Below are positions 5,220-58,695 of a DNA stretch of 64,000 nt, in pieces (within the stretch, counting starts at the first letter, position 1; every line of letters begins with the position of its first letter). The position numbers and the translations under genes were made by a program. The DNA lies in the sequence record NC_024124.2. One strand, given 5' to 3'. The notes beneath the pieces are model-generated. The model was not told where the DNA came from. It saw only the letters and a program-made list of their open reading frames with translations, and made no database searches. Source of the DNA: Escherichia phage vB_EcoM_JS09.

Positions 5220-5563
5220 CCAAAGTGTTGGCTTTAATAGTTGGCTTGGTTTCATTTAACGCTCTTGCTAATACTACATATACTGATGTAACGGAGTATA
5301 CAAACAGAACGGCGTCTGATTATTGTGGTAAAAGTCAAGAGTGTAAAGTAGATTTTTCACAAAAATTGTTATATGCGTATAAAGACGGAGAAAAAGATGG
5401 GGCGTCTAGTAGGTTCAAGGCGTCTACCTTAATTAAAAGATACTATAAAAAATGGCAAATATTAGAATGCTCGGTGGCGGAACCTAAAGATAAGGCAGCA
5501 TGCAATTCTATGGTGGACCGTCTAGTTGACTCTTATAATAGAGGACTTGCAGCAAGTGATTAA
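5216..5563 (+). CDS. Secreted/periplasmic hypothetical protein
   Basis: N-terminal signal-like MTKVLALIVGLVSFNALA; ATGA overlap with upstream gene. Confidence 0.45.
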   Translation: MTKVLALIVGLVSFNALANTTYTDVTEYTNRTASDYCGKSQECKVDFSQKLLYAYKDGEKDGASSRFKASTLIKRYYKKWQILECSVAEPKDKAACNSMVDRLVDSYNRGLAASD

Positions 5564-6023
5564 AAACTATATCAAGGGCGATATTGTCGCCCTGTTTTCT
5601 AAAGGTAATAATATTGCTCATGGGTGTAATTGTTTTCATACAATGGGCGCCGGTGTAGCAGGCCAATTAGCAAAGGCTTATCCAAAAATTTTAGAAGCCG
5701 ATAAACTTCAAACCGAATTCGGAGACAAGTCTAAACTCGGGACTTATTCGGTTTATGAAAAATATTTTAAGACCCATAAAGCTTATTGCTTTAATCTTTA
5801 TACGCAGTTTGAGCCGGGACCTAATTTTGAGTACTATGCTTTAATGAATTGTATAATAGAATTAAATGAATTCGGAAAGAATAAGATAACAAAGCCTGTA
5901 ATTTATATGCCAAGAATTGGTGCAGGTATCGGTGGCGGAAACTGGGATGTCATCGAAGAGATTTTAGACACATATTCCACTAAACTAGAAATTGTGATTG
6001 TTGATTGGGAACCATTATTATGA
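5556..6023 (+). CDS. Macrodomain protein (TARG1/DarG-like ADP-ribose hydrolase fold); start uncertain
   Basis: HGCNCFHTMGAGVAGQL and MPRIGAGIGGGNWDVI resemble TARG1-type macrodomain motifs; ORF opens at TTG 5526, GTG 5556 chosen after SD gagga. Confidence 0.55.
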   Translation: MIKNYIKGDIVALFSKGNNIAHGCNCFHTMGAGVAGQLAKAYPKILEADKLQTEFGDKSKLGTYSVYEKYFKTHKAYCFNLYTQFEPGPNFEYYALMNCIIELNEFGKNKITKPVIYMPRIGAGIGGGNWDVIEEILDTYSTKLEIVIVDWEPLL

Positions 6024-6232: not shown

Positions 6233-6435
6233 GTCAAACAAAAATTCTTACAGGTGCTAAATGCGAAAAATGCGAATGGCCTGTAGTTTTTGCTTTATGC
6301 AATGACGAAATGGCTTGTGATTTTGATTATTGGTGTTACTGTTCGAACAAAGGTTGTAGCAATCATAAAGGTGAAGGGTTTTACTCAGGATTTTACCCTT
6401 ACCCGGATTTTGTTAAAGAAGGTGAACCTAAATGA
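6229..6435 (+). CDS. Cys-rich small protein (putative metal-binding)
   Basis: CEKCEW...CNDEMAC...WCYCSNKGC pattern; ATGA overlap. Confidence 0.45.
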   Translation: MSQTKILTGAKCEKCEWPVVFALCNDEMACDFDYWCYCSNKGCSNHKGEGFYSGFYPYPDFVKEGEPK

Positions 6436-6614
6436 AATTAACTAAAGAAGAGAAAGCTAAACTGTTCGAACTTATCCATGACCTATTGGATGAGCAAGCA
6501 GCCACCAATGCGTACGATGAATATGCTCCTTTGACGGATGAAGAATATCAAACATTGTTGGAATCATTTGACAGGAAAGAACAAGAACTCATTGACTACG
6601 TGAATTCACTATAA
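6432..6614 (+). CDS. Hypothetical acidic protein
   Basis: 60-aa ORF with ATGA coupling. Confidence 0.4.
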   Translation: MKLTKEEKAKLFELIHDLLDEQAATNAYDEYAPLTDEEYQTLLESFDRKEQELIDYVNSL

Positions 6615-43895: not shown

Positions 43896-45338
43896 GTGGT
43901 AGAAATTATTTTGTCTCATCTAGTATATGACCAGGCTTATTTTTCTAAGGTCTGGCCTTATATGGATTCTGAGTATTTTGAGCGTGGACCGGCAAAAAAT
44001 GTCTTTAAAATTATAAAGAGCCACGTTAACGAATATAATGCAATGCCGTCTATCAATGCGTTAAAGGTGGCTTTAGATAACAGTTCTTTAACTGAAGCCG
44101 AATATAAAGGAACTTCAGACCTAATTGAAAAATTGGCTGATACTCCTGAAGACCACGAATGGTTGGTTAAAGAAACTGAGAAATATGTCCAGCAAAAAGC
44201 GATGTATAATGCTACATCCAAAATCATTGAGATTCAGTCTAATGCTGAACTACCTCCAGAACAACGTAACAAGAAAATGCCTGATGTAGGAGCTATTCCT
44301 GATATTATGCGTCAAGCACTTTCAATTTCGTTTGATAGTTATGTTGGACATGACTGGATGGAAGACTATGAAGCCCGCTGGCTTTCTTATCTGAACAAAG
44401 CACGTAAGGTCCCGTTCAAATTAAACATTCTGAATAAAATCACTAAAGGTGGTGCTGAAACTGGTACACTGAATGTTTTAATGGCTGGTGTTAACGTTGG
44501 TAAATCTTTAGGCCTTTGTTCACTTGCTGCAGATTATCTTCAAACAGGTCATAATGTTCTTTATATTTCCATGGAAATGGCTGAAGAAGTTTGTGCTAAG
44601 CGTATAGATGCAAACATGCTTGACGTATCACTTGATGATATTGATGATGGTAACGTATCTTATGCCGAATATAAAGCCAAGATGGAAAAATGGCGTTCAA
44701 AAACAACATTAGGACGTTTAGTAGTTAAACAGTATCCTACTGGCGGAGCTAATGCTAATACATTCCGTGCGTTGCTTAATGAATTGAAACTCAAGAAGAA
44801 CTTTGTGCCATCTGTAATCATGGTTGATTACTTAGGTATTTGCGGGTCTTGTCGTATAAGAGTTTACACTGAAAATAGTTACACGTTAGTTAAAGCTATC
44901 GCAGAAGAACTTCGTGCATTAGCAGTAGAATCTGAAACAGTTCTATGGACTGCAGCTCAAGTAGGACGTGCAGCATGGGATGCTTCGGATATGAACATGA
45001 GCGATATTGCAGAATCAGCAGGTTTACCAGCAACAGCAGATTTCATGTTGGCCGTAATTGAAACCGAAGAACTTGCACAAGCTGAACAACAACTTATCAA
45101 ACAAATCAAATCACGATACGGCGATAAGAATAAGTGGAATAAATTCCTGATGGGCGTACGTAAAGGCAACCAGAAATGGATTGAGATTGAGCAAGAAGGC
45201 ATGAACACATCTAACACAGTAAATGAAAACGCAGGTGCTCAGATGCGCCAGGCAGAGGTGAATCGTACGGAACGCGTAGGTAAAGCCAAAGCAACACGTG
45301 CTGACCTAGATAGCTTAGCCAATGAGTTAAAATTTTAA
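43896..45338 (+). CDS. 41: Replicative helicase gp41 (DnaB-like)
   Basis: GTG start after SD aaggag; Walker A GVNVGKS; MVEIILSHLVYDQAYFSKVWPYMD N-terminus. Confidence 0.9.
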   Translation: MVEIILSHLVYDQAYFSKVWPYMDSEYFERGPAKNVFKIIKSHVNEYNAMPSINALKVALDNSSLTEAEYKGTSDLIEKLADTPEDHEWLVKETEKYVQQKAMYNATSKIIEIQSNAELPPEQRNKKMPDVGAIPDIMRQALSISFDSYVGHDWMEDYEARWLSYLNKARKVPFKLNILNKITKGGAETGTLNVLMAGVNVGKSLGLCSLAADYLQTGHNVLYISMEMAEEVCAKRIDANMLDVSLDDIDDGNVSYAEYKAKMEKWRSKTTLGRLVVKQYPTGGANANTFRALLNELKLKKNFVPSVIMVDYLGICGSCRIRVYTENSYTLVKAIAEELRALAVESETVLWTAAQVGRAAWDASDMNMSDIAESAGLPATADFMLAVIETEELAQAEQQLIKQIKSRYGDKNKWNKFLMGVRKGNQKWIEIEQEGMNTSNTVNENAGAQMRQAEVNRTERVGKAKATRADLDSLANELKF

Positions 45339-45344
45339 TAAAAA

Positions 45345-45363
45345 GGAGACTTCGGTCTCCTTT
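45345..45363 (+). terminator. CUUCGG hairpin terminator after gene 41
   Basis: GGAGAC-TTCG-GTCTCC then TTT. Confidence 0.5.
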
Positions 45364-45426
45364 CGGGGTTTACATCTTCCTCTAGGCATGATATGATGTA
45401 CTTACACCAACCAAGAGGAAAACATT

Positions 45427-45801
45427 ATGAATATGTCTCAGGCAATTTTTACTGCAATCACCGAAAACACAACTGTTGAAGTAGTTTCTCCGCTGGCAAC
45501 CTACGTTATTCTTGCTCCTAAAACTATTGTATCTCGTATGGAAAACATGGGCAAACGTATCGTACAAATTGTTGGAGCCGGAAATCAAAAACTTGATTAT
45601 CTGCGAACCATCAAAGCTTATGAACATTTCCAACTCGAAAAAGGTTCTCCTATCCAGGTAGAACTCGTAAATGGTGATATCGTTCGAGCAATGTTCCATC
45701 ATTTCTATGCATTGAATGACCCATCTAAAGCGGTTCGTTTAATTGCATACGACGCAAACCAAAACGAAATCAACGCAGATATATCTAAATTACGTTTTTA
45801 A
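45427..45801 (+). CDS. Hypothetical protein
   Basis: SD agagga; early promoter upstream. Confidence 0.5.
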   Translation: MNMSQAIFTAITENTTVEVVSPLATYVILAPKTIVSRMENMGKRIVQIVGAGNQKLDYLRTIKAYEHFQLEKGSPIQVELVNGDIVRAMFHHFYALNDPSKAVRLIAYDANQNEINADISKLRF

Positions 45802-45850
45802 GTTTACTTCTCCAGTAGTTGTGTTATTATAGACCTATCAACTACTGGAG
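45802..45850 (+). promoter_or_regulatory. PeSL-like early promoter cassette
   Basis: GTTTAC, TATTAT -10, arms TCTCCAGTAGTTG / CAACTACTGGAGA. Confidence 0.55.
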
Positions 45851-45856
45851 AACAAA

Positions 45857-46174
45857 ATGAAAACCATCGATTGTAAAGCAGAATTTAAGATTTTTTATCA
45901 CGGTTCAAGTAGTTCAGCTAACATCGAAAACATGCTTTGTCCTCCTGAAGAAACAGGAGTTCTGTCTGAAACAGGACGTAAGAAAAACTTGGATCGTGTA
46001 TTCTTTACCGAAGATATCGGTTTAGCAAAGATTTATGCAGGACGAGCAGCACGCTCTTATGGAGGTGAACCACGTCTCTATCGAGTAATTTCTCCGGTAG
46101 ATGTAGTTCAAATGAATAATACTAAAGGTGCTACAGTTTATCACGCTGAATGGGCATTTTGCGAGGAAATATGA
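45857..46174 (+). CDS. Small ART-fold-like protein (HGS motif, Tpt1/KptA-like)
   Basis: IFYHGSSSS...GRAARSYGGEPRLYRV resembles the catalytic half of Tpt1/KptA ADP-ribosyltransferase-fold proteins; weak. Confidence 0.35.
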   Translation: MKTIDCKAEFKIFYHGSSSSANIENMLCPPEETGVLSETGRKKNLDRVFFTEDIGLAKIYAGRAARSYGGEPRLYRVISPVDVVQMNNTKGATVYHAEWAFCEEI

Positions 46175-46362
46175 GCAAATTAACTAAAGTTACTTTTATT
46201 GGCTGGTTTAAAAATGATAATACGTTCACTAAAGATATCATGTTATCAGGTGACCGTGAAGAAATCGAGTGGGTTGCGGTACAACTTGCTGAAGTGAACA
46301 AAGCATTAGTTAAAGCATTTGTTAATGACGAGAAAGTTTTTGAAGCTGATTTCAGAGGATAA
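46171..46362 (+). CDS. Hypothetical protein
   Basis: ATG 46171 after SD gagga; ATGA overlap. Confidence 0.4.
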   Translation: MSKLTKVTFIGWFKNDNTFTKDIMLSGDREEIEWVAVQLAEVNKALVKAFVNDEKVFEADFRG

Positions 46363-46363
46363 T

Positions 46364-46576
46364 ATGTATTCAACTGTGTTTAAACCATCAACATACGAAT
46401 TTGCATCAACTACACAATGGAAAGCTCTTATTCTGGAAGGATGGGAACTAATGATGGACTGTGAAGCATCTGAAAAGTTTCCACACGGCAAAGTGGACTT
46501 CGTTAAATTTGCTGTACGTCCGACTAAACGACAGATTCGTCAAGAAAAACGCAAATTTCGCAAAAGTTTAAAATAG
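46364..46576 (+). CDS. Small basic protein, RPTKRQ-motif family
   Basis: C-terminal FAVRPTKRQIRQEKRKFRKSLK. Confidence 0.45.
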   Translation: MYSTVFKPSTYEFASTTQWKALILEGWELMMDCEASEKFPHGKVDFVKFAVRPTKRQIRQEKRKFRKSLK

Positions 46577-46636
46577 CTGTTTACAAGCACCACATACTGT
46601 GTTACTATCTTTCTATCAACTACAGAGGAAATTGAA

Positions 46637-47005
46637 ATGAAAAAATTAATCGCTTTAGCAATGGTATTTGGATTAACCGGATGTGGTGCCCATGGCTTTA
46701 TCCCTAATAACGTCGGCCAATTGATTTACAATCCGAATGTTAAACAGTACGACCAACCTAAAGTTGAAGTGGAAGACCCGGTTACTGTAGGTAATCGAAT
46801 GATTCAAGCTGATGCCCATGCTCAACGTTATCGTGACTCTGATACTGTAGCATTGTCAAAAGAACAACGCGTTAAAGAACATTGTCTACAGGCTACTGAA
46901 ATCGCATTCATTCGCTATGTTGAAACAACTGGTAAAGAGCCTACCCAGAAACAAATCGCGAATAACTACGTCCAGTGTATTGAACGTTTAAACAAATTTA
47001 ATTAA
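46637..47005 (+). CDS. Putative lipoprotein
   Basis: Signal peptide with lipobox MKKLIALAMVFGLTGC. Confidence 0.55.
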   Translation: MKKLIALAMVFGLTGCGAHGFIPNNVGQLIYNPNVKQYDQPKVEVEDPVTVGNRMIQADAHAQRYRDSDTVALSKEQRVKEHCLQATEIAFIRYVETTGKEPTQKQIANNYVQCIERLNKFN

Positions 47006-47066
47006 TTGGTTTACACCAAAGTTAAAACAAGATACTATAAACATAACAAATCAAGAGGAAATTAAC

Positions 47067-47315
47067 ATGGAATTATTCGTAGCTAGTTCAGTAGCAGTTT
47101 TAATCGCAGGTATTGGTTCAATCATCATTTACATGCTGCCTTGGGTAATCGCACTTATTCGTGGCACAAAAAGCACAACAGCAATCTTCTTTGTATCTTT
47201 ACTCTTTAACTGGACGATGGTTGGTTGGATTGGAACTTTAATTTGGTCTATCGTTGCCGAAAAGAAATCGGCTCAGCAGCCTCAACAAGTAATTATTATT
47301 CGCGAAAAAGAATAA
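47067..47315 (+). CDS. Small membrane protein (two helices)
   Basis: SVAVLIAGIGSIIIYMLPWVIALI and FFVSLLFNWTMVGWIGTLIWSIV. Confidence 0.5.
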   Translation: MELFVASSVAVLIAGIGSIIIYMLPWVIALIRGTKSTTAIFFVSLLFNWTMVGWIGTLIWSIVAEKKSAQQPQQVIIIREKE

Positions 47316-47378
47316 ACTTGTTTACATTATAGATGGACTATAGTATAGTAGTCCTATCAAATCAACTAAGGAGTTAAA

Positions 47379-47672
47379 ATGAAAAAGTTATCATTGGCAG
47401 CAATCTTACTTGCAGTATCATGTGCACCGGCTCCAGTTACGGCAGGTTATGATAAAGACCTCTGTGAGTGGTCAATGACTGCAAATCAAGAAGATGTTGA
47501 ACAACAAATCTTCTCTGATATCATGAACATCACTAAACGAGACCGTCCTAATATGGTTAATAAAGTTGTTGAACAACTTAAGTCTGGCGGTATCATGCAG
47601 TACAACTATGTTTTGTATTGTGACCCTAATTTCGATAACAAAGATATCGTAACCGAAATCACAGGTGAATAA
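47379..47672 (+). CDS. Putative lipoprotein / periplasmic protein
   Basis: Signal peptide MKKLSLAAILLAVSC; T4 spackle lies in this neighbourhood (identity not verified). Confidence 0.5.
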   Translation: MKKLSLAAILLAVSCAPAPVTAGYDKDLCEWSMTANQEDVEQQIFSDIMNITKRDRPNMVNKVVEQLKSGGIMQYNYVLYCDPNFDNKDIVTEITGE

Positions 47673-47673
47673 C

Positions 47674-48324
47674 ATGATTTATTACATGCACAAAAATGCG
47701 CCATTTAAATATGGTAAATTTCCTAATGCGCAATGTTATAATATAACGCCGAATGAAAATAATAACGGATATCATATTGGTGTAATTTTTGTAATTGTTA
47801 AAGATAACGAAATCGTTGCCTGGGCAGATTTTAAAGGTACAACATATGATGTTAATCCTGTGCCTTTCACATATTACAATATAATGGATTTGGCATATGA
47901 TTATAATTGGTTTAATCATGACGCGTTGGTTCATATTGAAGGTGTAGGATTTGACATCTCCTATTCTAGCTATTCATTATGTCCTATGAGCCGAGCTCAC
48001 GGTAAAGATGTATCATATCTTTCAATTCGGAAACGTGTAAACTTCAAACGTAGTACAGAGTATGTTGGTGGACTCTTTGTTAAAGATAATAAAATAACCC
48101 GTATTAGTTATCCTCTAAGTGTAGGTCAAAAAGATGTTGATGTTGATTTAGACTTAACTGAAAATAACATTAATCATATTGCTTCTGTATATTTTGATAT
48201 CGATGAAAAAATTGTAGTGTGTGGATACGAATTACCACCCGAAGAAAAGGCTGAAGCAATTGAAGTCGAATTAGAAATTTCTGTCGATGACCAAATATTT
48301 AATGCATTTATGAATCGAGGTTAA
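47674..48324 (+). CDS. Hypothetical protein
   Basis: ATG 47674 inside ORF 47665-48324. Confidence 0.5.
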   Translation: MIYYMHKNAPFKYGKFPNAQCYNITPNENNNGYHIGVIFVIVKDNEIVAWADFKGTTYDVNPVPFTYYNIMDLAYDYNWFNHDALVHIEGVGFDISYSSYSLCPMSRAHGKDVSYLSIRKRVNFKRSTEYVGGLFVKDNKITRISYPLSVGQKDVDVDLDLTENNINHIASVYFDIDEKIVVCGYELPPEEKAEAIEVELEISVDDQIFNAFMNRG

Positions 48325-49049: not shown

Positions 49050-50072
49050 ATGGCTGAATGGATAGATAATGAATTTGCTTATCGTGTGTTTTCTCACCTC
49101 CCTCGTTTTAGACAAATCAATAATTCAAGCACATTTAAATTAACGTTTCGTTGTCCAGTTTGTGGCGACTCCCAGACAGATGCAATGAAAGCTCGCGGTT
49201 GGTATTATGGCGGTACTCCTGGTAATGTACATTGCTATAACTGTCAATACCACAATACAATTTCCGGATACTTAAAAGAGTATGATGAAGAGCTTTATCG
49301 CGAATATCTAATGGAAGTTCGTAAAGAAAAAGCTAGAATGGAACCAAAGATTGAAAAGGTTCCTGAACATAAACCAGAACCGGAGAAAAAGACTATAAAT
49401 TCTTTGCCGTCTTGTTCTCGTCTGGACAAGTTGCCTGAAGAGCATCCTATTGTGAAATATGTTAAGTCTCGGTGTATTCCTAAAGAATCGTGGAACAGAT
49501 TATGGTTCACATTAGAATGGCCCAAATTGGTCAACAAGATTCAACCTGGTACGTATAAGAAAGAGATTCCTGAACCACGTTTAGTTATTCCTATTTTTAA
49601 TAAAGATGGGAAGGCCGAGTCATTCCAAGGACGTGCACTTCGTAAAGATGCTCCTCAGAAATATATCACTATTAAAGCGTTTGAGTCTGCAACAAAAATT
49701 TATGGTGTTGAACGTGTTAAGGAAGGGGACGTCTGGGTAATGGAAGGCCCTATTGATAGTTTATTCATACCCAATGCAATCGCTATTACAGGAGGCTCGA
49801 TAGATTTAGATGTGGTACCATTTAAAGAACGTCGGGTATGGGTAATGGATAATGAACCTAGGCATCCGGATACTATAGCTCGCATGAAGCGATTAGTTGA
49901 TGCAGGCGAACGTGTCATGTTCTGGGACCGAGCTCCATGGAGATCAAAGGATGTGAATGATATGGTAATGAAAGAAAATGCAACACCACAAGAAATTTTA
50001 GAATATATGAAACAGAATATTTCAAGTGGGTTGCATGCTAAAATGAGATTATCTCGTTATTCGAAGATTTAA
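49050..50072 (+). CDS. 61: DNA primase gp61
   Basis: Zinc ribbon CPVCGDSQTD...CYNCQYH and WIDNEFAYRVFSHLP N-terminus match recalled T4 gp61. Confidence 0.9.
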   Translation: MAEWIDNEFAYRVFSHLPRFRQINNSSTFKLTFRCPVCGDSQTDAMKARGWYYGGTPGNVHCYNCQYHNTISGYLKEYDEELYREYLMEVRKEKARMEPKIEKVPEHKPEPEKKTINSLPSCSRLDKLPEEHPIVKYVKSRCIPKESWNRLWFTLEWPKLVNKIQPGTYKKEIPEPRLVIPIFNKDGKAESFQGRALRKDAPQKYITIKAFESATKIYGVERVKEGDVWVMEGPIDSLFIPNAIAITGGSIDLDVVPFKERRVWVMDNEPRHPDTIARMKRLVDAGERVMFWDRAPWRSKDVNDMVMKENATPQEILEYMKQNISSGLHAKMRLSRYSKI

Positions 50073-52729: not shown

Positions 52730-53311
52730 ATGACATGTCAATCTGAACTTCAAGAACGCGAATACCTAACAAATCTGATTGATAGCAAATTCACCCGCCA
52801 AGAACAAAACATTCTCTGGGCCTGCACCGATTCTAAGGAAGACCCGGATTTCCACTATGAATTAGACCATCTTGTTCGTAAGCATATGACTTCTACAGTG
52901 CCAGTAGAACTCTACCGTGGTGTAACTCCAGAAGAAGTAGAACGTCTTTCCCTTCTTTCTGTGGGATGCCATTGGTCTCCTGGACGAGTAACATCGTTCA
53001 CAACTGATTTCAGTACAGCTCGTCAATTCTCCGGGAGATGGGAATATCAGACGTACACTATTCTTAGTCTCAGGAATGCTCCATTCATTTTTGATTACTA
53101 CCAAAACATGGTTAACATTGTACTTGCCGGAAAGAACCCTAAGCATGTTATGGAAGAAACGCGTGTTGACGTCCTAGATATGATTGAATCTGAACAAGAA
53201 TACATGGTCTCAGGTATCTCTAGATTTGAGATTGCGGAAATTGAAGAGTTAGAGTATGACCCTTTGTCTCGAGTATACAAAATCATTCACTTAAAGATGT
53301 TGAATTTTTAG
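52730..53311 (+). CDS. modB: ADP-ribosyltransferase, ModB-like (by position and R-S-E motifs)
   Basis: YRG, FTTDFSTA, EQEYMV motifs; tandem paralogue of next gene. Confidence 0.55.
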   Translation: MTCQSELQEREYLTNLIDSKFTRQEQNILWACTDSKEDPDFHYELDHLVRKHMTSTVPVELYRGVTPEEVERLSLLSVGCHWSPGRVTSFTTDFSTARQFSGRWEYQTYTILSLRNAPFIFDYYQNMVNIVLAGKNPKHVMEETRVDVLDMIESEQEYMVSGISRFEIAEIEELEYDPLSRVYKIIHLKMLNF

Positions 53312-53368: not shown

Positions 53369-53977
53369 ATGTTTATGCCGTATAACGAGTGTGAAATTGA
53401 AGAAATGGTTCGTCGTGCTCAAAACCCCGAATATCAAGATGTATTGCAGTACGAAATTGATAGTCAATTCAGCGACATTGAACAAAGTGTACTGTGGCAG
53501 TGTATGGAAAACAAGCCAGACTGTATTCAACAGGAGTTAAGTTCAATCGTTCGTAGAAATTGGACGTCTTCTGTTCCTGAGACAATGTATCGTGGAATCT
53601 CTAAGAAAACTATGGCCACACTCGATGATAAAGGTATTGGTAGTATTATTAAATTTGACAGAGTAATGAGCTTCAGCCCAGTGTTCGGTGTAGCACGTAA
53701 CTTTGCTTCGTATAATTTTTACGGAACATTTAATATGTTCTGCATCAAAGATGCACCATTTGCTTTCAACTTCCGTGAACATATGCTTAATATGATTCTG
53801 GCTGCACCATCTTGTGAGTTCAATGGAGCTTTCCCTGAAGCGACAAGACGGTCTAATGCTAGACTTATATCTGACGAATGTGAATTTATGCTCCCTATAG
53901 GGACTACACTGCATGTAGATTCTATTATTCAAGATGGACGTTATACAATCTGGAATCTGTCTATTGTCAGTTACTGA
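53369..53977 (+). CDS. modA: ADP-ribosyltransferase, ModA-like (by position and R-S-E motifs)
   Basis: YRG, SFSPVFG, ECEFML motifs; paralogous to 52730-53311. Confidence 0.55.
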   Translation: MFMPYNECEIEEMVRRAQNPEYQDVLQYEIDSQFSDIEQSVLWQCMENKPDCIQQELSSIVRRNWTSSVPETMYRGISKKTMATLDDKGIGSIIKFDRVMSFSPVFGVARNFASYNFYGTFNMFCIKDAPFAFNFREHMLNMILAAPSCEFNGAFPEATRRSNARLISDECEFMLPIGTTLHVDSIIQDGRYTIWNLSIVSY

Positions 53978-57253: not shown

Positions 57254-57748
57254 ATGAATATCGATACTACGGCTACTTACATCCTGAAAGACGAAAAACA
57301 AATCAACTGGTACGGTGCTTCAGTGCGAGCTTATGAAAAGTTTTGTGAAATTTTAGGTGCCACTCAAGGTAATAGTTTCACTATTGTTAACTTCATCAAA
57401 CAAGCTGAAGGCCCTTGGTTATTCTTAGAAATTAAAAATTCATATGGTACAATTTCTACTACTGCCATCCCAAGCACCGACTTTGAACTGTTGATTGAAG
57501 AAGCACCTGTTAAAGATGGTCTCCACTTTGATATGGATATCGTTTGTATGTACGGTACTCTGATTAAGCCTATTGAGCCTACTGATTTATTGTGTAAATA
57601 TGTTTCAATTCGACGCCCATTCGATGGTCCAGTAAATGGATGGGTAACTGACCAGTGGATTGAAGATGGGGTTGAACTTCTGAACGTTGTTCATGCCGGT
57701 GATTTTAGTGTAGTTCCACGTAGTGCTGTGGTTAATATTCTAAATTAA
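57254..57748 (+). CDS. Hypothetical protein, member of tandem paralogue triad
   Basis: C-terminal VTDQWIEDGVELLNVVHAGDFSVVP shared with next two genes. Confidence 0.5.
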   Translation: MNIDTTATYILKDEKQINWYGASVRAYEKFCEILGATQGNSFTIVNFIKQAEGPWLFLEIKNSYGTISTTAIPSTDFELLIEEAPVKDGLHFDMDIVCMYGTLIKPIEPTDLLCKYVSIRRPFDGPVNGWVTDQWIEDGVELLNVVHAGDFSVVPRSAVVNILN

Positions 57749-57751
57749 TGT

Positions 57752-57780
57752 TGTACATCCAAGGATGGATGGAGTATAAT
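57752..57780 (+). promoter_or_regulatory. Repeated promoter cassette, CCAAGGATGGTTGGAGTATAAT family
   Basis: TGTACATCCAAGGATGGATGGAGTATAAT. Confidence 0.55.
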
Positions 57781-57810
57781 GAATTCAACTTAAACAAAGA
57801 GAGAAAAATT

Positions 57811-58266
57811 ATGATTACTATTGGTGAAATTAAGCGTGTATCAATTGCATCCCGGTCTAAAGCCGCAGGTCGTCTGGTTGAAGTTATCGGACTTCGCACA
57901 AATGGCATGGGACGTATTAAAGAAGTTAAAGTTCGAATCATTCCTAGTTTTGGACGTCAGGATACTCAGTACGCTTACGTAAGTCCTAAATTCCTGGAAA
58001 CTCGTGTGAGCGCTCCATCTGCTTCTACTGAACCTAATGTACAGTTCAAATGGGCCTTGTGTAAAGGTGTTGAATTCCAGACTGATAAAGAATTTGACTT
58101 CATCGATGAATACGGTTATCCAAGCAAAACTGATACCATGTGTGGCTTCATTAGTGACCAATGGGTCGAAGATGGTGAAAAGTTATACAATATCGTATTC
58201 TTAGGTGACTTCCGAGTTGTTAAAGAATCTGAAATCACTCGCTATGTGTCTCCTCGTAAAGCTTAA
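57811..58266 (+). CDS. Hypothetical protein, member of tandem paralogue triad
   Basis: ISDQWVEDGEKLYNIVFLGDFRVV; ATG 57811 inside ORF 57748-58266. Confidence 0.5.
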   Translation: MITIGEIKRVSIASRSKAAGRLVEVIGLRTNGMGRIKEVKVRIIPSFGRQDTQYAYVSPKFLETRVSAPSASTEPNVQFKWALCKGVEFQTDKEFDFIDEYGYPSKTDTMCGFISDQWVEDGEKLYNIVFLGDFRVVKESEITRYVSPRKA

Positions 58267-58275
58267 GGAATTATT

Positions 58276-58695
58276 ATGAATATTGTAAATCTCTCTACAG
58301 GTGATTACGTATATGTATCTGTTGCTTCTCGCTCTAAAGTTGCCGGGAAGTTGGTAGAAGTTCTTTCTGTGAGTGATCCGGTTTTTGGTCGTAACCAAGT
58401 TAAAGTTCGTGATGCTAATGGTAATATTGGCTACGTCTCAAGCCAGTTCATTGAGCCGGAAGAACGTGCGTTCAAATGGAAACTGTGCAGGTCTGTTTTA
58501 GTTGTAAAAGACCATGAATTTACTATTGCTGCTGCAACTGACGGGTCTCCATGGACAACGAATCAAGTTGCTGGTTTTATTTCGGACCAATGGGTTGAAG
58601 ATGGTGTTAAGCTTTATAACATCGTTTTCGCTGGACAGTTCATGGTAGTTCCTGAGTTCCAAATCAAAAAATATTGTCCAGCATCTTTTGCATAA
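58276..58695 (+). CDS. Hypothetical protein, member of tandem paralogue triad
   Basis: ISDQWVEDGVKLYNIVFAGQFMVV; N-terminal VSVASRSKVAGKLVEV shared with 57811 gene. Confidence 0.5.
   Translation: MNIVNLSTGDYVYVSVASRSKVAGKLVEVLSVSDPVFGRNQVKVRDANGNIGYVSSQFIEPEERAFKWKLCRSVLVVKDHEFTIAAATDGSPWTTNQVAGFISDQWVEDGVKLYNIVFAGQFMVVPEFQIKKYCPASFA

Follow-up and report, generated by a model that had tools for sequence, protein, structure and literature searches.

A 64,000-nucleotide stretch of the genome of Escherichia phage vB_EcoM_JS09 (NC_024124.2; hereafter the window) was analysed around an open reading frame (ORF) at positions 45857–46174, located between genes 41 and 61. Its 105-residue product is a minimal ADP-ribosyltransferase (ART) domain without any accessory domain, here called mini-ART; within the ART superfamily it falls in the Arr/KptA-like part and, on balance, it probably acts as an active stand-alone early effector, that is, as an NAD+-dependent ART used for host takeover or counter-defence. 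Both the ART prediction and the link of the gene to its neighbour dmd were already published as computational predictions by Iyer, Burroughs, Anantharaman and Aravind (2022; Viruses 14:1977), and several GenBank records name the gene ‘putative ADP-ribosyl transferase’. The classification itself adds nothing new; the biology of mini-ART is probably important to these phages.

The initial annotation had described an ORF with the segments IFYHGSSSS and GRAARSYGGEPRLYRV between genes 41 and 61, and all of this was found to be exact, the two segments being residues 12–20 and 62–77 of the protein. A Shine-Dalgarno sequence, GGAG, lies 7 nt 5′ of the ATG (45847–45850). The protein matches phrog_2110 at E 7e-60 and is 100% identical to RB69ORF040c (NP_861730.1); the source phage is an RB69-like (Mosigvirus) T-even phage, and the 1.4 kb around the gene are 98–99% identical to RB69 and its relatives. 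Using tblastn, mini-ART was found in 608 T4-like phage records at 34–100% identity (most at 60–100%), from phages of Escherichia (214), Klebsiella (116), Acinetobacter (68) and Aeromonas (62) as well as Enterobacter, Vibrio and others. Among 1.84 billion representative proteins, 221 matches at E ≤ 0.001 were obtained by profile search, 122 of them at ≤ 1e-10. A search of 185,579 species genomes with a narrower family alignment recovered only 5 loci, two or more of which look like T4-like phage contigs; in essence, the family is viral. An ART of the Klebsiella-phage or a related type was also observed on Flagellimonas marina NZ_JBHSCL010000010.1 (L012, 178 kb) and on CAVJPU010000002.1 (L013, 167 kb); both have the dimensions of a T4-like phage genome and are probably phage sequence inside bacterial assemblies.

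Conservation was compared using pairwise identities between the window and loci L026–L031 and L046. In the JS98-like phages (L026–L031), mini-ART was 88.6% identical, compared with 67.5% for gp41, 62% for gp61, 47–65% for Dmd and 89.5% for UvsX, and in an Acinetobacter phage pair it was 69.5% identical, compared with 58% for gp41 and 53% for gp61. Across these pairs, neither the replicative helicase gp41 nor the primase gp61 is as well conserved as this accessory gene. Taken with the phrog_2110 match and the many phage records, this conservation indicates a genuine, strongly selected gene rather than a chance ORF.

The predicted structure of mini-ART has the split beta-sheet core of the ART fold, with strands at residues 13–18 (b1, YHGS), 48–51 (b2, VFFT), 72–78 (b3), 84–87 (b4), 94–97 (b5) and 100–104 (b6), a helix at 54–68 that includes Y60 and R63, and a flexible, invariant basic loop at 34–46 (SE.GRKKNL). 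In a structure search, nearly all of the 60 matches listed were ART-fold proteins, including OspC3, TreX, PARP15, CARDS and DarT1. In Foldseek against the PDB, the top two matches were KptA at E 3e-3 and Arr at E 8e-3 (TM 0.59). In BFVD, the nearest non-trivial match was a 94-aa phage ‘rifampin ADP-ribosyl transferase’ (E 3e-9, TM 0.74); next came ART-PolyVal proteins and a putative RNA 2′-phosphotransferase. The ART fold proposed in the initial annotation was thereby borne out, the predicted structure showing no unrelated fold, and the likeness to the catalytic half of Tpt1/KptA without the N-terminal RNA-binding domain, which it had also put forward, can be refined to an Arr/KptA-like mini-ART. 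The likeness to ARTs far exceeds a chance ‘HGS’ tripeptide. Mini-ART is among the smallest ART domains known and carries no target-recognition module.

At the sequence level, the homology of mini-ART to Arr is visible only with profiles. A profile of 43 family members searched against the PDB matched two Arr proteins, Arr-ms (2hw2/9iaf; E 3.8e-4) and Arr-2 (E 0.037); H15 was aligned to the catalytic H19 of Arr and V48-F49-F50-T51 to Arr I-Y49-I-T (for H19 and Y49, the Arr numbering was worked out anew from the printed alignment). Comparison of the family with an Arr alignment using hhalign gave 96.2% probability and E 2.7e-9 over residues 6–84. Neither the hhalign nor the hmmsearch alignment extends past residue 84 (of 105) to reach the Arr ‘EDD’ segment, and the conserved C-terminal half of Arr (EDDPN...PGNPT.S.R..P plus about 40 residues) is absent from mini-ART. 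No sequence-level homology to Tpt1/KptA was detected, and the Pfam PTS_2-RNA model was not matched. Sequence and structural model together indicate that mini-ART is Arr-related rather than an Arr orthologue, and a look-alike of Tpt1 in the NAD+ lobe only. A true orthologue would inactivate rifamycin-type antibiotics and thereby shield the host RNA polymerase needed by the phage; besides the profile-level homology, this has a precedent in the Arr-family ARTs of some actinophages, to which a rifamycin-inactivating role was assigned by Iyer et al. (PMC9503650). With the homology breaking off before the C-terminal segment, the Pfam Arr-ms model failed by mini-ART, and hosts that are enteric and aquatic Gram-negatives, such a role is extremely improbable.

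Four residues (H15, G16, T51 and A57) were invariant across the 43 diverse family members, and P29, P30, E38, R41, V48, F49, Y60, A61, G69 and G70 were at least 90% conserved in the broad family. In the mini-ARTs of T4-like phages 26 positions were invariant, including the loop G40-R41-x-K43-N44-L45 and E103. The strand-1 histidine motif (H-G-[ST]) is present, and the strand-2 position is occupied by F49, which is aromatic but neither Tyr nor His (Tyr occurs in a minority of relatives). Residues N87/N88 (D in most homologues) lie near the expected position of Arr D84, in the ‘EDD’ segment, and the alignment stops before that position. By sequence comparison, the histidine and aromatic positions of an H-type ART could thus be verified in mini-ART, whereas the canonical catalytic Glu/Asp/Gln was not placed.

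The lack of a placeable acid on strand 5 and the very small size of the protein would suit a catalytically dead NAD+/ADP-ribose binder that acts as a decoy or as a sponge for NAD-derived immune signals, and phage sponges for ADP-ribose-derived signals are known. However, the conserved residues of mini-ART are those used by active H-class ARTs, and the same domain occurs among the enzymatic effector domains of polyvalent proteins. Arr and Tpt1 likewise lack the canonical strand-5 glutamate and are nevertheless active. The description of an H-H-h clade of ARTs fits such a lack (PMC9503650), and we give a dead binder little credence.

Of the listed representative relatives of mini-ART, about one third contain several domains and reach lengths of up to 3,924 aa. 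The partner domains in 55 multidomain relatives were ART-PolyVal (8), NUDIX (3), DUF7178 (3), GNAT (2) and Toprim (2), with single cases of a phage minor tail protein, lambda-type portal, LPD23, CHAP, 2H phosphoesterase/Acb1-like and ddrB-ParB. Pfam Arr-ms (PF12120) was matched by 31 of the 55 at E ≤ 0.001, only some of them reaching the 25-bit cut-off. ART-PolyVal (PF18760) was not matched by the mini-ART of the window; in the relatives it is a separate, additional domain of the same polypeptide. Such architectures are of the ‘polyvalent protein’ type of injected phage and conjugative-element effectors (PMC5512222). In distant relatives, mini-ART was also seen embedded in giant phage proteins, namely P0166 (954 aa), P0163/P0202 (~1,960 aa) and P0139/P0147 (~3,700–3,900 aa), with the architectures lambda-type portal + mini-ART + 2H phosphoesterase/Acb1-like and ART-PolyVal + mini-ART + NUDIX; because of the second of these, one polypeptide can hold two different ART domains.

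Some of these fusions bear on a Tpt1-like role in RNA repair, in which mini-ART would ADP-ribosylate a terminal 2′- or 5′-phosphate on RNA cut by host ribonuclease toxins, together with phage ligases and phosphoesterases. KptA/Tpt1 is the best structural match, the basic loop is invariant, the gene is predicted to be co-transcribed with two inhibitors of host ribonucleases, the Slopekvirus ART lies four genes 5′ of RNA ligase 2, and the 2H phosphoesterase and NUDIX partners are processors of Tpt1-type products. Those partners are few, however (1/55 and 3/55), and mini-ART is without the entire N-terminal RNA-binding lobe, which in Tpt1 holds most of the Arg-His-Arg-Arg tetrad. The PTS_2-RNA match is also missing, the protein is closer in sequence to Arr, and T4-type end healing by Pnkp leaves no 2′-phosphate, which counts further against this role. 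Overall, RNA repair appears decidedly unlikely.

The local gene order is 41, ORF041c, mini-ART, dmd, 61.4/tifA, imm.1, imm, sp, 61.2/adfA, further genes and 61 (Table 1), and the ATG of dmd overlaps the stop codon of mini-ART (ATGA), here and in RB69. A promoter-like site and a perfect inverted repeat precede the mini-ART gene. None of 200 shuffles was equally stable as the hairpin; the –10 hexamer sits in its loop, and its 3′ arm contains the Shine-Dalgarno GGAG. The same stem, with mismatches, was observed in RB69. The predicted hairpin may mask the ribosome-binding site in read-through transcripts from gene 41/ORF041c and not in those started inside it, and translation of mini-ART may be allowed only from its own promoter. 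A hairpin-masked ribosome-binding site with an internal early promoter parallels known T4 cases. Phages of Klebsiella, Aeromonas and Acinetobacter likewise have a predicted extended –10 promoter just 5′ of their ART gene. In T4, gene 41 is directly followed by dmd with no mini-ART between them; there, too, an early promoter and an inverted repeat occupy the corresponding position 5′ of dmd, and this promoter drives dmd-tifA, tifA being 61.4 (PMC9391042). Given its own promoter-like site, the T4 dmd promoter and the ART promoters in the other genera, mini-ART is most likely the first cistron of a predicted immediate-early ART-dmd-tifA operon, and would thus head an operon encoding two proven anti-toxin factors, Dmd and TifA.

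Directly 3′ of mini-ART, dmd, 61.4/tifA, imm.1, imm, sp and adfA make up an anti-toxin and superinfection island (46171–48324). A second in-frame dmd ATG lies 21 nt 5′ of the annotated start, within the mini-ART coding region (46150–46170); the start at 46171 is preferred in view of the Pfam match and of the annotation of RB69. ORF041c was considered as a partner of mini-ART and rejected, as it is missing from the close relative 348Ecol098PP, which has the order 41-ART-dmd. A terminator-like site inside the mini-ART ORF (45942–45959) represents no more than chance expectation.

The only published functional hypothesis is that of Iyer et al. (PMC9503650 section 3.7.1), who described a predicted ART of the ‘p0068 family’ which, with Dmd, would constitute a toxin-antitoxin system of these phages, and who speculated that this ART modifies RNA. 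The mini-ART family is almost certainly the p0068 family, since it is the only ART-fold gene adjoining dmd here. In the proposed type II pair the ART would be the toxin, perhaps RNA-modifying, and Dmd its cognate antitoxin. ART domains are common as toxins, the two genes lie in a single predicted operon, their ATGA overlap implies translational coupling, and their adjacency is conserved across RB69-like and JS98-like phages.

A neighbourhood census of 50 mini-ART loci, grouped into 20 ART lineages (88% identity), argues against such a pair. Dmd was found within 6 kb of mini-ART in only 1 of the 20 lineages, the one containing this locus. Klebsiella, Acinetobacter, Aeromonas and Vibrio, whose phages carry the ART as described above, do not appear among the listed organism names of 796 Dmd-positive records and can account for at most a handful of them. 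Conversely, hundreds of Tequatrovirus records have dmd but no mini-ART; for phages of Escherichia, T4 included, the number with dmd alone is at least 380. The genes 3′ of the ART in other genera are unrelated to Dmd, and Dmd already has proven targets, RnlA and LsoA. There is also no co-variation: the same mini-ART allele (88.6%) lies beside Dmd alleles 65% and 47% identical to that of the window (L026–L031, ~6295–6483), which suggests allele swapping at dmd independent of mini-ART in JS98-like phages. The two genes are distributed largely independently and their pairing is lineage-restricted; mini-ART behaves as an autonomous module, inserted 5′ of dmd in one lineage. These data weaken the toxin-antitoxin hypothesis, which we regard as unlikely.

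Any one gene cluster was shared by at most 5 of the 20 lineages, and at position ±1 by at most 3, and a universal partner, immunity gene or antitoxin for mini-ART was rejected on the census of the 50 loci. The Klebsiella-phage gene 3′ of the ART was rejected as a Dmd; it encodes a 58-aa protein that is not Dmd-like and has a membrane-embedded look by sequence. The genes upstream of the window, Klebsiella-phage and Acinetobacter-phage ARTs showed no mutual similarity in pairwise BLASTP. Related proteins of 250–300 aa (phrog_7439/phrog_7204) precede the ART in Klebsiella (Slopekvirus) and Aeromonas (Tulanevirus) phages and in a third lineage; they are the only recurrent immediate ART neighbour outside the Dmd lineage.

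The reading we favour, that of an active stand-alone early effector, would involve the following steps. Transcription of mini-ART would begin as soon as infection starts, at the gene’s own early-type promoter. The protein would bind NAD+ via the H15-G16-S17 strand and the aromatic pair F49/Y60, and mono-ADP-ribosylate an acceptor conserved across many Gram-negative hosts; transfer of the ADP-ribose would then help host takeover or counter-defence. Such a role is suggested by Dmd, TifA and AdfA, proven inhibitors of host toxins encoded in the same island, by the earlier case of AcrIF11, a small immunity-disabling ART of phage origin, by the use of the domain in injected polyvalent effectors, and by the very strong purifying selection on the gene. 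The acceptors of the nearest relatives are an RNA phosphate (Tpt1) and a small-molecule hydroxyl (Arr). Due to this kinship and the invariant basic loop (G40-R41-K42-K43-N44), a nucleic-acid or nucleotide-like acceptor would be at least as likely as a protein. Only tentatively do we propose that T4-like phages possess in mini-ART a new enzyme for counter-defence or takeover, one that modifies a non-protein or universally conserved acceptor; candidates may include an end of RNA or DNA, a nucleotide that serves as an immune signal, or a conserved component of host immunity or translation. If true, this would explain the retention of a 105-aa accessory gene by over 600 phages from six or more host genera, at an identity above that of helicase and primase.

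Several observations weigh against an active effector. The predicted strand 5 (T93-V94-Y95-H96-A97) contains no acidic residue, and E103 on strand 6 is invariant in the T4-like subfamily only, being V, K, I, L or T in many relatives. As a single sequence, mini-ART had no match in Pfam (even at E ≤ 10) or the PDB. The promoter and the hairpin were predicted from a consensus match and folding energy. As no partner is conserved, no target can be deduced from the neighbourhood, and a literature search found no experimental work on the gene.

Among the other features of the window are two further ARTs and a putative phosphatase. ModA/ModB-like enzymes and a macrodomain had been noted in the initial annotation, the former in agreement with the matches of modB and modA to phrog_832. 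The Tk.4 homologue carries an A1pp phosphatase motif according to the RB69 annotation, which we take to denote a macrodomain; no Macro model was matched here. Three consecutive ORFs (164, 172 and 139 aa) at 57254–58695 all match Pfam MotB (modifier of transcription) and represent a tandem paralogue cluster.

Table 1. Coordinates of mini-ART, its predicted control elements and other features (positions in the window unless a locus is named).
Feature	Position	Strand	Remarks
mini-ART gene (RB69ORF040c homologue)	45857..46174	+	ATG start, 105 aa; ORF translation and phrog_2110 match
Promoter-like site, sigma-70/T4-early type	45803..45830	+	TTTACT-16 nt-TATTAT with TG extension; 9/12 consensus matches
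Perfect 14-bp inverted repeat	45808..45852	+	TTCTCCAGTAGTTG ... CAACTACTGGAGAA; dG -22.1 kcal/mol, z -4.1
dmd (antitoxin against RnlA/LsoA), second cistron	46171..46362	+	Pfam Dmd E 3e-21; RB69 annotation
61.4/tifA homologue (ToxN inhibitor), third cistron	46364..46576	+	Pfam DUF7279 E 5e-20; RB69 gp61.4
61.2/adfA (anti-DarT1)	47665..48324		Pfam AdfA E 6e-120
gene 41	43896..45338		Upstream flank of the mini-ART region
GC hairpin with short interrupted T tract	~45347-45365		3′ of gene 41; GGAGAC-TTCG-GTCTCC-TTT; not called by terminator scan
Predicted strong early-type promoter of ORF041c	45369-45397		TTTACA-17-TATGAT
ORF041c homologue (RB69ORF041c, phrog_10668), putative protein	45427..45801	+	124 aa; without Pfam family
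gene 61	49050..50072		Downstream flank of the mini-ART region
modB	52730..53311		phrog_832 ‘RNA polymerase ADP-ribosylase’
modA	53369..53977		phrog_832 ‘RNA polymerase ADP-ribosylase’
Tk.4 homologue	5526..6023		phrog_335 ‘phosphatase’
Protein 5′ of ART (phrog_7439/phrog_7204)	L003 1593-2462; L004 1683-2441		Cross-match 1e-9 to 1e-12

Compared with known systems, mini-ART shares with the p0068 ART and Dmd module both the phages (Escherichia and Shigella T4-like) and the position directly beside dmd; Iyer et al. place that ART in the H-Y-[EDQ] clade, whereas the present data put mini-ART nearest to Arr/KptA. Arr (PF12120; PDB 2HW2, 9IAF, 9IBA) is longer (~143 aa, compared with 105 aa), and its ‘EDD’ (D84) segment and C-terminal region are missing from mini-ART, in which the PP..T..SE.GRKKNL loop stands in for a shorter Arr loop and Phe replaces Arr Tyr49. 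With Tpt1/KptA (PDB 9LD3, 9LDI, 8TFI), the C-terminal NAD+-binding ART lobe is matched, but the N-terminal RNA 2′-phosphate-binding lobe has no counterpart, only 12 residues preceding strand 1. The phage anti-CRISPR ART AcrIF11 (PDB 6KYF) has no detectable sequence similarity to mini-ART, and its target Cas8f is absent from most hosts of the mini-ART phages. T4 Alt, ModA and ModB are, like mini-ART, phage-encoded ARTs of the same phage group, and they act early; they differ in belonging to the R-S-E clade rather than the H type, in their size (~200–680 aa), and in having known protein or RNAylation targets.
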